From IMG/VR virus record IMGVR_UViG_2667527792_000011, positions 1 through 3,685 of that record: 3,685 bases of DNA; one strand, given 5' to 3'. A program made the translations under genes and the position numbers. The notes beneath the pieces were generated by a model. That model saw only the letters and a program-made list of their open reading frames with translations, was not told the origin of the DNA and ran no database searches. This DNA is from a virus (Duplodnaviria; Heunggongvirae; Uroviricota; Caudoviricetes). Shown piece after piece: positions 1 to 3,685 of the stretch; the stretch's first letter is position 1, and each line of letters starts with the position of its first letter.

Positions 1-450
1 TCAAAGCGCCTTCAGCTGTACTGGCATAACGACATTTATACTGTCGTATAAAATTCGACTGGCAAATCTGGCACTCTCTCCGGCCAGGTGAACCAGTCGT
101 TTTTTTTTGAATTTTATAAGAGCTATAAAAAACGGTGCGAACGCTGTTTTCTTAAGCACTTTTCCGCACAACTTATCTTCATTCGTGCTGTGGACTGCAG
201 GCTTTAATGATAAGATGAGAATCGCAGCAACTTGTCGCGCCAATCGAGCCATGTCGTCGTCAACGACCCCCCATTCAAGAACAGCAAGCAGCATTGAGAA
301 CTTGGGAATCCAGTCTCTCTTCCACCTGCTGATCTGCGACTTATCAACTCCCACAGCTTCCGCTGTCTTCTCAGTTCCAAGCATTGCGATTTTGTTAAGC
401 AACGCACTCTCGATTCGTAGTGCCTCGTTGCGTTTGTTTGCACGAACCAT
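1..450 (-). CDS. cII: cII-type transcriptional activator; N-terminal ~78 aa match lambda CII, C-terminal ~71 aa are unrelated (possible fusion or truncation product)
   Basis: Minus-strand ORF. Translation from the ATG at 448-450 reads MVRANKRNEALRIESALLNKIAMLGTEKTAEAVGVDKSQISRWKRDWIPKFSMLLAVLEWGVVDDDMARLARQVAAIL, matching lambda CII as I recall it, then diverges (ILSLKPAVH...) and runs to a stop at 1-3. The SD-like TAAGGAAATACTTACAT precedes the ATG on the minus strand. The ORF track starts this frame at 510, but that extension covers nutR and is not coding. Lambda homology ends near plus-strand position 216. Confidence 0.7.
   Translation of the reverse strand: MVRANKRNEALRIESALLNKIAMLGTEKTAEAVGVDKSQISRWKRDWIPKFSMLLAVLEWGVVDDDMARLARQVAAILILSLKPAVHSTNEDKLCGKVLKKTAFAPFFIALIKFKKKRLVHLAGESARFASRILYDSINVVMPVQLKAL
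57..108 (+). terminator. Putative intrinsic terminator: two-tier hairpin followed by a T9 run
   Basis: Plus strand: gactgg (57-62) pairs with ccagtc (93-98); inner stem ctggc (68-72) pairs with gccag (83-87) around a 10-nt loop; a run of nine T follows at 100-108. A plus-strand reading frame entering from the left edge ends at a TAA at 49-51, consistent with the 3' end of a convergent gene. Confidence 0.4.
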
Positions 451-467
451 ATGTAAGTATTTCCTTA
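428..467 (+). promoter_or_regulatory. pRE (repressor-establishment promoter) with CII-binding direct repeats TTGC-N6-TTGC
   Basis: TTGC at 428-431 and 438-441 separated by 6 nt, with a -10-like AAGTAT at 455-460. It lies on the strand opposite cII and points towards cro and cI, as in lambda. Confidence 0.6.
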
Positions 468-529
468 GATAACAATTGATTGAATGTATGCAAATAAATG
501 CATACACCATAGGTGTGGTTTAATTGGAT

Positions 530-561
530 GCCCTTTTTCAGGGCTGTGATGTGTAAGAGCG
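530..561 (-). promoter_or_regulatory. nutR N-utilisation site (boxA 553-561, boxB 530-544); the rho-dependent tR1 region lies just downstream, towards cII
   Basis: Minus-strand reading gives CGCTCTTAC (boxA) then GCCCTGAAAAAGGGC (boxB hairpin, 5-bp stem with a GAAAAA loop), located between cro and cII exactly as in lambda. Confidence 0.75.
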
Positions 562-568
562 GTGTTAT

Positions 569-778
<210 letters not shown>

Positions 779-793
779 TTAGTACATGCAATT

Positions 794-822
794 ATTATCA
801 CCGCTAGAGGTAAAACAGTCAA
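794..822 (-). promoter_or_regulatory. pR promoter (drives cro and cII)
   Basis: Minus-strand -35 TTGACT (plus 817-822) and -10 GATAAT (plus 794-799) with a 17-bp spacer; overlaps OR1 and OR2. Confidence 0.8.
796..812. promoter_or_regulatory. Operator OR1 (variant)
   Basis: 17-mer tatcaccgctagaggta; the lambda OR1 I recall is TATCACCGCCAGAGGTA, so there is one substitution, at position 10. Confidence 0.8.
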
Positions 823-834
823 CACGCACGGTGT

Positions 835-836
<2 letters not shown>
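820..836. promoter_or_regulatory. Operator OR2
   Basis: 17-mer caacacgcacggtgtta, matching lambda OR2 as recalled. Confidence 0.8.
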
Positions 837-1605
<769 letters not shown>

Positions 1606-1622
1606 TTACAGGGCGGTAAACA

Positions 1623-2180
1623 TTGGCAAAAATAGATGATTATCAGCCAAGCCAAGTAGAAGTTGATAAAGTACTTTATTGTAAAAAAATAGTTAACTTT
1701 TCTGGCGTTAAATGGAAACAGAAACCAAGTCGCTCTGATATGTGGCTACAAGCTCATATCATCCCCTTGGATGAGGATTGTATACCTATACAAGGGCTAA
1801 AGTTTGAACTGAAATGGAAACCAGATCAGGATTCAGAACCTGATGACCCGATTTCTTACCCTAAAATAAATATTATTGCTTTCTATCATAACAAGAGGGT
1901 TTTCGCGGTAGATACCTATCACTTTGACAAACACACGAATAGTTACAAGGTCGATCATCCGAAGTACCAAGATATCATTTACGGTGCTCATTACCATGTA
2001 TACTATGAAGAAGCTGGATACTATAGTGATAGAATAGCGTTTCCAATCGAAGATGACATAAACCCAGATGACCTGGTAGGGTATTGGAATTACTTCTGTA
2101 AACATCTGAACATAACTTACTCTGGGAGAATACCTTTACCGCTTGAAGATGAGTCGGGGCAAATGGGGTTTGGAATATGA
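1623..2180 (+). CDS. Hypothetical protein, 185 aa, unknown function (cargo gene A in the rexA position)
   Basis: ORF in the same frame as cI, opening after a TAA at 1617-1619. The only in-frame starts are TTG at 1623 (GGGCGG 7-12 nt upstream) or ATG at 1740, so the start is uncertain. The C-terminal half is rich in Tyr, His and Asp/Glu (HPKYQDIIYGAHYHVYYEEAGYYSDRIAFPIEDDINPDD). No transmembrane stretch, Walker motif or resemblance to RexA that I can see. Confidence 0.6.
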   Translation: MAKIDDYQPSQVEVDKVLYCKKIVNFSGVKWKQKPSRSDMWLQAHIIPLDEDCIPIQGLKFELKWKPDQDSEPDDPISYPKINIIAFYHNKRVFAVDTYHFDKHTNSYKVDHPKYQDIIYGAHYHVYYEEAGYYSDRIAFPIEDDINPDDLVGYWNYFCKHLNITYSGRIPLPLEDESGQMGFGI

Positions 2181-2929
2181 TGTGCTCAACAGTGATCTCA
2201 CAACTAGGTTTCGAATGCCATCCAATAGGCAAGACCTTGAGAATTATCAGTCCATTCACTTACTGTGATGATGGAGAGCATGTCGGTGCCTTTATCCGTG
2301 AAGTCAATGGTAGGTATTTAGTTAGTGACAGATGCGATGCCTTAATGAATATGGAGGCAAGAGGGATCTCGCTTACCAAAAAACGACTTGATGAGATACG
2401 ACAATTACTGCTTAAAGAAGGCGCAGAACTCAATGCTCGAGGAGAAATCATTGCTTGGGCAACAGAAAAGGATGTCGGTGCGATTACATCGAACATAATT
2501 AGAGCTGGTATACTCGCATCAACTTTGTCGTTAGACTGGTATCAGCCAGTTCAAGCTGAAAAGTTTGAAAGTATGGTTATTGATTATCTATATCACACAG
2601 AGCTTAGAGAGGCACTTTCTCTTCGTGAAAACGTATATGGCTTGAGTGGACATCAAATTACCGTCCCTGTAACAATAAAAACCGACATACCTAAATACGT
2701 TTTTACATCAAGCGTGAAACACGGAGGAAGCTGGAATAGTGCTTACTCATTGCTTGGGAAACTAATTGATCTTAAAGCTTCAAGTGAGGAGTATAACAAC
2801 AGATTTGTTGTTATAGACAGCGAAGCAATTGGTGATCAAATGCAACAACTCTCCTTACTCTTCCATGAATCAAGCCAAGTTCTACCATTCTCCAAAAGAG
2901 AGACTTGGATTAAGAGACTTGCAGCATAA
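2177..2929 (+). CDS. Hypothetical protein, 250 aa, unknown function (cargo gene B in the rexB position)
   Basis: ATG at 2177 overlaps the gene A stop in an ATGA motif (translational coupling), with GGGG 10-13 nt upstream. The ORF ends at TAA 2927-2929, immediately before a terminator hairpin. No hydrophobic segment long enough for a membrane helix, unlike RexB. Confidence 0.7.
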   Translation: MMCSTVISQLGFECHPIGKTLRIISPFTYCDDGEHVGAFIREVNGRYLVSDRCDALMNMEARGISLTKKRLDEIRQLLLKEGAELNARGEIIAWATEKDVGAITSNIIRAGILASTLSLDWYQPVQAEKFESMVIDYLYHTELREALSLRENVYGLSGHQITVPVTIKTDIPKYVFTSSVKHGGSWNSAYSLLGKLIDLKASSEEYNNRFVVIDSEAIGDQMQQLSLLFHESSQVLPFSKRETWIKRLAA

Positions 2930-2932
2930 TAC

Positions 2933-2960
2933 AACCCGGCCTCAGCGCCGGGTTTTCTTT
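2933..2960 (+). terminator. Intrinsic terminator of the immunity operon (timm-like)
   Basis: GC-rich stem cccggc (2935-2940) pairing with gccggg (2947-2952) around a 6-nt loop, followed by TTTTCTTT. Lambda-like sequence resumes from this point. Confidence 0.75.
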
Positions 2961-3117
2961 GCCTCACGATCGCCCCACCTAAAAACACATAACCAATTGT
3001 ATTTATTGGAAAATAAATAGATACAACTCACTAAACAACGCAATTCTGATCTCTCCTTACATCGCCGAGGCAATACACTCACTCGAAAAAATAAATCCAT
3101 ATAAAAAACATACAGAT

Positions 3118-3134
3118 AACCATTTGCGGTGATA
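3118..3134. promoter_or_regulatory. Operator OL3 (variant)
   Basis: 17-mer aaccatttgcggtgata; the lambda OL3 I recall reads AACCATCTGCGGTGATA in this orientation, so one substitution. Confidence 0.7.
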
Positions 3135-3137
3135 AAA

Positions 3138-3154
3138 TATCTCTAGCGGTGTTG
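3138..3154. promoter_or_regulatory. Operator OL2 (variant)
   Basis: 17-mer tatctctagcggtgttg; lambda OL2 as recalled is TATCTCTGGCGGTGTTG, so the same G-to-A change as in OR1 and OL1. Confidence 0.75.
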
Positions 3155-3187
3155 ACACAAATACCACTAGCGGTGATACTTAGCTCG
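3152..3187 (+). promoter_or_regulatory. pL promoter
   Basis: -35 TTGACA (3152-3157), 17-bp spacer, -10 GATACT (3175-3180); expected start near 3187. Overlaps OL1 and OL2. Confidence 0.85.
3162..3178. promoter_or_regulatory. Operator OL1 (variant)
   Basis: 17-mer taccactagcggtgata; lambda OL1 as recalled is TACCACTGGCGGTGATA, so the same G-to-A change. Confidence 0.75.
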
Positions 3188-3220
3188 TCAGCAGGACGCA
3201 CTAACCACCATTGAAGGTGA

Positions 3221-3251
3221 GGCTCTTAAAAATTTAGCCCTGAAGAAGGGC
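3221..3251 (+). promoter_or_regulatory. nutL N-utilisation site (boxA 3221-3229, boxB 3237-3251)
   Basis: GGCTCTTAA (boxA; lambda has CGCTCTTAA) followed by GCCCTGAAGAAGGGC (boxB hairpin, 5-bp stem with a GAAGAA loop). Confidence 0.8.
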
Positions 3252-3361
3252 AGCATTCAAAGCAGAAAGCTTTGAGTAGCGCGAAATGCAGCTGCAAGAC
3301 AGCAACCGTGGGGATAAGCATCACGGCGCGTTACTCAAAGCTAACTGACAGGAGAATCCAG

Positions 3362-3685
3362 ATGGATGCACAAACACGCCGCCGCGAACGTCGCGCAGAG
3401 AAACAGGCTCAATGGAAAGCAGCAAATCCCCTGTTGGTTGGGGTAAGCGCAAAACCAGTTAACCGCCCTATTCTCTCGCTGAATCGCAAACCGAAATCAC
3501 GAGTAGAAAGCGCACTGAATCCGATAGACCTTACAGTGCTGGCTGAATACCACGAACAGATTGAAAGCAACCTGCAACGTATTGAGCGCAAGAATCAGCG
3601 CACATGGTACAGCAAGCCTGGCGAACGCGGCATAACATGCAGTGGACGCCAGAAAATTAAGGGAAAATCGATTCCTCTTATCTAG
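3362..3685 (+). CDS. N: Antitermination protein N
   Basis: 107 aa, MDAQTRRRERRAEKQAQWKAANPLLVGVSAKPVNRP...KIKGKSIPLI, matching lambda N as recalled, including the arginine-rich boxB-binding motif. SD AGGAG at 3350-3354; TAG stop at 3683-3685. The ORF track's upstream extension from 3272 is not used. Confidence 0.95.
   Translation: MDAQTRRRERRAEKQAQWKAANPLLVGVSAKPVNRPILSLNRKPKSRVESALNPIDLTVLAEYHEQIESNLQRIERKNQRTWYSKPGERGITCSGRQKIKGKSIPLI

Follow-up and report, generated by a model that had tools for sequence, protein, structure and literature searches.

The lambda-type immunity region at the start of this viral contig raises a question about cII: what is a reading frame that begins as lambda cII and ends as something else? 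The stretch analysed, here called the window, comprises 3,685 nt (positions 1–3,685 of IMG/VR record IMGVR_UViG_2667527792_000011) and carries the region in reversed orientation relative to usual lambda (Table 1). From the ATG at 450, the minus-strand ORF encodes residues 1–78 identical to lambda CII (78/78, ending QVAAIL) and then diverges, exactly where the initial annotation had seen homology break. It continues for 71 further codons (216 down to 4) to a TGA stop at 3 to 1, giving 149 codons in all, and includes the poly-lysine stretch noticed earlier (KKK, coded by the A9 complement of the T9 at 100–108). Two readings had been offered: a deletion or recombination endpoint fusing the immunity region to other DNA, or a genuine mosaic cII with a novel C terminus.

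Table 1 Features of the window, in window coordinates
Feature	Position	Strand	Basis
cII extension, almost certainly accidental; 71 codons + TGA (3 to 1)	1-216	minus	ORF list; antisense of lpxC spacer, terminator and 3' end
lpxC 3' end, (F)KAPSAVLA + TAA at 27-29	1-29	plus	100% identity to K-12; K-12 annotation; translation
lpxC-secM spacer, first 187 of 230 nt	30-216	plus	match to E. coli core chromosome
Predicted lpxC intrinsic terminator, interrupted hairpin 56-99 + T9 100-108	56-108	plus	RNA fold; identical in K-12
Breakpoint, 1-nt overlap at T216	216-217	none	direct comparison of both parents; BLAST limits
cII' codons 1-78	217-450	minus, ATG at 450	identical to lambda CII; Pfam PF05269
nutR boxB, GCCCTGAAAAAGGGC on minus strand	530-544	minus	read from sequence; placed relative to lambda annotation
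cro	569-769	minus	ORF; lambda annotation; Pfam Cro called in relatives
pR promoter, TTGACT / 17 nt spacer / GATAAT, within OR	794-822	minus	promoter scan; lambda operator annotation
cI repressor, wild allele of lambda immunity	870-1583	plus	ORF; exact protein in 3,653 blocks of gene-position collection
Two-gene cargo cassette, 185 aa + 250 aa, rexAB position	1623-2929	plus	ORFs; relatives; Pfam; PADLOC
Cargo ORFs singly	1623-2180 and 2177-2929	plus	in place of rexAB
N antiterminator, 107 aa	3362-3685	plus	Pfam N36, E 1.6e-26; lambda annotation

At the DNA level, homology to lambda and all lambdoid phages begins at window 216, equivalent to lambda 38594, the first base of cII codon 79. The truncated gene (cII') matches PF05269 over residues 1–85 (E 4.2e-41, Pfam profile search), placing it in the family, but homology stops after residue 78, short of a full-length CII (~92–97 aa, with a C-terminal tail bearing an FtsH degron). 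The final 19 CII residues (TNKKRPAATERSEQIQMEF) are absent, including RSEQIQMEF, which is given as the FtsH degron of CII (PMC8138137). Set against lambda CII (gene cII, lambda 38360–38653), the window shares residues 1–78, the native start, the nutR/tR1 region, cro and pR; it differs in exchanging the last 19 residues for 71 antisense host codons, with no oop, O or P after them. The replication module (O/P) that lies beyond cII in its normal context is replaced by an lpxC flank. Also lost is the end of helix 4. Without this and the C-terminal FtsH degron, cII' is probably inactive or irrelevant.

The DNA to the left of the break is of host origin. A search with window 1–216 gave identity to the E. 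coli K-12 chromosome (216/216 nt, E = 2e-108), with one copy in 5,425 of 5,426 complete E. coli genomes and no match in any phage record. In K-12 the match comprises 29 nt at the end of lpxC and the start of the lpxC–secM spacer. Window 3–29 translates in plus-strand frame 3 as KAPSAVLA*, the LpxC C terminus, and the lpxC coding sequence ends at L001 position 1529, equal to window 29. An LpxC degron, LAFKAPSAVLA, is listed in PMC8138137. A plus-strand frame ending at 49–51 had been read as the end of a gene; frame 1 is indeed open to a TAA at that position, but the gene frame is frame 3, with its stop at 27–29.

A predicted terminator hairpin, shared unchanged with K-12, starts 27 nt past the lpxC stop. 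Its stems pair 56–62 with 93–99 and 66–72 with 83–89, and U9 follows. The fold (-23.8 kcal/mol, z = -4.3; 0/200 shuffles fold as well) upholds the terminator-like hairpin earlier placed at 57–108, which a simple terminator scanner missed by reason of an interior loop and a 10-nt loop. The suspicion of a convergent, non-phage gene ending here with its terminator was therefore sound, the gene being E. coli lpxC (100% over 216 nt). The "unrelated DNA" into which cII was said to run is likewise non-phage, but it is ordinary E. coli core chromosome.

The lpxC–secM spacer is unbroken across the breakpoint position in 5,425/5,425 complete genomes, and its sequence was not found in any IMG/VR viral contig; it is thus no attachment site, and no hot spot for insertions either. 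To ask whether the break parts secM from a promoter we scanned the K-12 spacer, which gave no consensus match. The spacer finds no match in one of the 5,426 complete E. coli genomes, and three assemblies place the lpxC–secM region on a plasmid-labelled record; mislabelled replicons or an odd assembly may lie behind these cases.

T216 is both the last base identical to the host and the first identical to the phage, so that a single T is shared, with no other homology. With a slash marking the break, K-12 reads ...TAATGATAAGAT/TTGTGCGC... across it, the parental phage reads ...TTTTTTATTGGT/GAGAATCGC..., and the window reads ...TAATGATAAGATGAGAATCGC. Continuity from lpxC to secM in K-12 is ...GATAAGAT/TTGTGCGC..., and that from intact cII to O is ...TTATTGGT/GAGAATCG.... 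The break falls 43 nt before the secM GTG. Inspecting both parents by eye, we recognised no restriction site, IS end, att core or microhomology above 1 nt at the break. On the phage side it lies just past a T-run, which from the lambda map we take to be the oop terminator; this would put the whole of oop, O, P and ori beyond the break. The earlier view of a recombination endpoint that removed distal cII and everything past it agrees with this layout, oop, O, P and ori being cut off in the window copy.

The junction was found in no phage or plasmid record and in none of the complete E. coli genomes (5,426); its 30-mer is absent from GTDB species representatives, JGI metagenome contigs and IMG/VR. 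The predicted reciprocal junction, t_o joined to secM (GGGCGTTTTTTATTGG(T)TTGTGCGCTAAATAC), is absent from JGI and GTDB. Exact look-up of the 149-aa product, of a 169-aa ORF and of the plus-strand junction ORF returned no record among 153 billion gene positions. Neither the junction nor its product shows the recurrence in independent phages or prophages that marks a mosaic boundary. A site-specific integration junction is also a poor description, with the break inside cII and the host site intact elsewhere.

These data bear directly on the idea of a mosaic cII with a novel functional C-terminal domain. The 149 codons do form an unbroken ORF that keeps the RBS and start codon native to cII, as expected of such a protein, but its 71 extra codons are the exact antisense of the host lpxC 3' flank. 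None of the 120 matches listed of 476 (E <= 0.001; 5.8 billion proteins searched) covers the tail, and the ten close relatives listed all carry a 97-aa cII. The initial annotation had proposed looking for the same 149-aa cII in intact phages; we found it in none, and the intact relatives carry the 97-aa form with O and P. We reject the mosaic reading, whose probability we regard as negligible: its tail is host antisense and its product does not recur in phages.

Long cII variants do exist, and these too count against a mosaic domain in that they appear frameshifted from an A-run at codons 81–82. Five over-long CII proteins (P0030, P0033, P0035, P0036 and P0014; 121–195 aa) keep cII to about residue 80 and then appear to switch frame at the AAAAAA run and read on. 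Sequencing errors in the homopolymer, or else genuine frameshifts, are the probable cause; one of the five comes from a 4.75-Mb NCBI genome. Their break differs from that of the window cII'.

Since the 71-codon tail is the antisense of host DNA, it is best read as an accidental ORF that follows the lpxC flank to the first chance stop. As a single joint judgement, it is almost certain that the tail has this origin and that the junction is a unique, non-homologous join of core chromosome to prophage.

A coincidence attends the join: it unites the 3' ends of the genes for two classic FtsH substrates, lpxC and cII. Most of the LpxC degron is still encoded in the window, and exactly the part of cII that carries its own degron is lost. 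We see no functional link between the two, because the genes lie on opposite strands.

The phage half has a clear parent. Window 216–3685 is identical over 3,470/3,470 nt to L013 (GCA_040813085.1), an intact prophage beside ybhC, and nine other close relatives differ from it by at most 2 mismatches. In the gene-position collection, 185 blocks contain the 250-aa cargo protein; the ten of these 185 places listed are all lambdoid prophages with a normal 97-aa cII adjoined by O and P. Their gene order is P–O–cII (97 aa)–cro–cI (237)–185 aa–250 aa, then pL-operon genes and xis–int, with N called in 8/10. Eight of the ten adjoin ybhC, that is att-lambda. The other sites are a response-regulator gene with fimbrial genes, or an aldehyde-dehydrogenase/amino-acid-kinase gene pair, presumably proA/proB. 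The window phage is ~96% identical to laboratory lambda, a wild lambdoid with non-rex cargo.

The cargo proteins have weak Pfam matches (185 aa, DUF6978; 250 aa, DUF1828), and in a PADLOC search the pair matches components A and B of the candidate defence system PDC-M24 (E 5e-4 and 6e-10). It also occurs in phages ev017, ev207, PhiR57_1 and PhiR63_2. Across L003–L022, at least three cargo sets occupy the interval from the identical cI allele to N: a single 345-aa gene, 144-aa plus 200- or 206-aa genes, and the 185- plus 250-aa genes. Several sets beside one cI allele make the rex slot a cargo swap point in wild lambda-immunity phages.

Decayed prophages with the same cI allele (L005, L007 and L011) keep cII–cro–cI–N–int and are natural replication-dead remnants. 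L005 and L007 (8828–9581) have lost O and P, and a 96-aa gene, which we take to be ren, the gene beside P, stands ~170 nt from cII. L011 (7716–9581) has a 46-aa O remnant in place of O, fused to tail genes and next to tail-tip genes. All three adjoin a pantoate-ligase gene, presumably panC. Their decay makes the loss of everything beyond cII a known pattern.

Given such remnants, a lambdoid phage might have integrated site-specifically in the lpxC–secM spacer and later lost its late and replication genes through a deletion from the attR side to cII, the simplest viable form of the deletion remnant first proposed. The order lpxC–cII'–cro–cI–N, then presumably int, attL and secM, fits a remnant of this sort, and decayed prophages of this kind are common. 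Against this history, the spacer is uninterrupted in every complete genome that supplies it and occurs in no IMG/VR viral contig, and the listed relatives with the exact module sit at ybhC or two other sites, never at lpxC–secM. We consider it quite improbable.

The geometry of the chromosome constrains the in-vivo routes. In NZ_CP082100.1, lpxC lies on the plus strand (109.9–110.8 kb), followed by secM, secA, mutT, yacG, zapD and coaE; its att-lambda prophage has cI on the minus strand (821.3–822.0 kb) and cII, O and P on the plus strand. In the window one strand carries both lpxC and cI, whereas an att-lambda lysogen has them on opposite strands. An origin at att-lambda thus needs a ~712 kb inversion within one replichore, or an inverted copy or insertion. 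Plain deletion from an att-lambda prophage is rejected for this wrong relative orientation; the earlier suggestion of a deletion as the simplest mechanism gives way to an inversion-type join.

A second starting point is nearer. In NZ_CP148440.1 a prophage carrying that cI allele stands ~49 kb from the spacer, on its clockwise side and in the window's orientation, and L005, from the sister strain record CP148463.1, is such a prophage beside the pantoate-ligase gene. Plain deletion from this side would give the junction but remove secM–secA–coaE. Both secA and coaE are essential, so the product would be viable only with a second copy.

The reading that we prefer, at about even confidence, is that a real illegitimate recombination made the join in vivo. 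Homology-independent recombination in the sequenced strain would have joined cII codon 78/79 to the lpxC–secM spacer, by an inversion-type or inverted-insertion event if the phage lay at att-lambda, like its 100%-identical relative. The resulting copy of the immunity region would be cut off from oop, O, P and ori and unable to replicate, but would keep OR, pR, cro, cI, the cargo cassette, OL and N, and with them lambda immunity. The cargo should still be expressed from the cI transcript, and a derepressed pR would transcribe antisense into lpxC.

A close rival, which the initial annotation had not raised, is that no such chromosome existed and that the contig is an assembly or library chimera, uniting in vitro or in silico two unrelated pieces, the lpxC flank and a prophage, from a single E. 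coli genome. We hold this to be a serious possibility, at rather more than one chance in three. It could stem from ligation, from MDA (amplification), from a long read that is itself chimeric or from a contig extended at low coverage, any of which would leave the strain's own lpxC–secM and cII–O–P intact. The junction and the chimeric ORF are unique to this record among the collections searched and the 153 billion gene positions, both halves are 100% identical to ordinary sequences, and the overlap is just 1 nt. Public single-cell-derived E. coli fragments with prophage immunity pieces exist as well (H150). Each in-vivo route is awkward, demanding a huge (~712 kb) inversion or an otherwise lethal deletion of essential genes; the blunt join with 1 nt of overlap also looks like a ligation or amplification chimera; and no second independent sequence in the collections searched holds the junction or its reciprocal.

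Other considerations run against a chimera. Graph assemblers would seldom cross a repeat-free chimeric joint while the true paths have normal coverage, and a contig normally passes such a junction only where this is the dominant path. The partners in an MDA chimera usually lie a few kb from each other and not at distances of tens or hundreds of kb. The window start is the exact stop of the chimeric ORF, which suggests that the gene was called on a longer contig, and the window appears to have been cut at called-gene boundaries of that contig. The behaviour of assemblers and this apparent cut, together with the fact that lambdoid prophages commonly decay on the right of cII, are why we slightly favour a real recombination event.

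An engineered origin, in which a cloned or recombineered immunity cassette was placed downstream of lpxC, would account for the clean join in an intergenic spacer just past a terminator. The phage is nevertheless a wild lambdoid, diverged from the laboratory strain and without rex; the endpoint falls inside cII with no restriction site or designed boundary recognised, and the window has no scar, vector or marker sequence. A literature search, aimed at the lpxC–secM intergenic region and its promoter rather than at engineered constructs, found nothing on that region. We think engineering very improbable.

An illegitimate recombination event would have several familiar counterparts. Defective lambdoid prophages and lysogens such as DLP12, Rac and lambda deltaH1-type deletions keep N–cI and lack replication and late genes. 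The window, a candidate remnant in the initial annotation, likewise keeps the immunity region and cargo and, in its copy, lacks everything to the right of cII; it differs in having its endpoint in distant core chromosome, beside essential genes and in an orientation impossible by deletion from att-lambda. Abnormal excision of the lambda gal/bio type also yields homology-independent phage–host joints. The window has such a novel joint with essentially no crossover homology, but its host partner adjoins no known att site. We reject a packaged transducing-phage genome by reasoning: the retained arm has no cos or ori, nor late genes. The E. coli lpxC flank (dcw–sec region of K-12) is reproduced in full up to the break, with the LpxC C terminus and the terminator with its T9; the window copy of the spacer then stops and continues in phage, as in 0/5,425 genomes. 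Whether prophage decay or rearrangement by illegitimate recombination, or a chimeric contig, the kind of event is already known, and no new kind of element is involved.

A bolder reading, to which we give a slim chance, takes the join as both real and heritable: an immunity and defence module (cI and the PDC-M24-like cassette) would have moved into the essential dcw–lpxC–secA region. There pR–cro–cII' would converge on lpxC. SOS derepression would then release N-antiterminated transcription from pR (nutR is intact), which would pass the lpxC terminator and read lpxC and ftsZ in antisense, tying envelope and division genes to the derepression of the prophage. Essential genes on both sides would also make the module hard to lose.

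The main value of the analysis is a correction: the 149-aa "cII" is not a protein variant, and the DNA beyond it is ordinary E. coli core. Neither a real join nor a chimera adds anything new on cII or on lysogeny control. If the contig is a chimera, what has been found is a misassembly to be flagged in the source record. If the join is real, it would be one more case of prophage decay or rearrangement by homology-independent recombination, unusual only in needing an inversion-type event and in lying next to essential genes, 43 nt short of secM.
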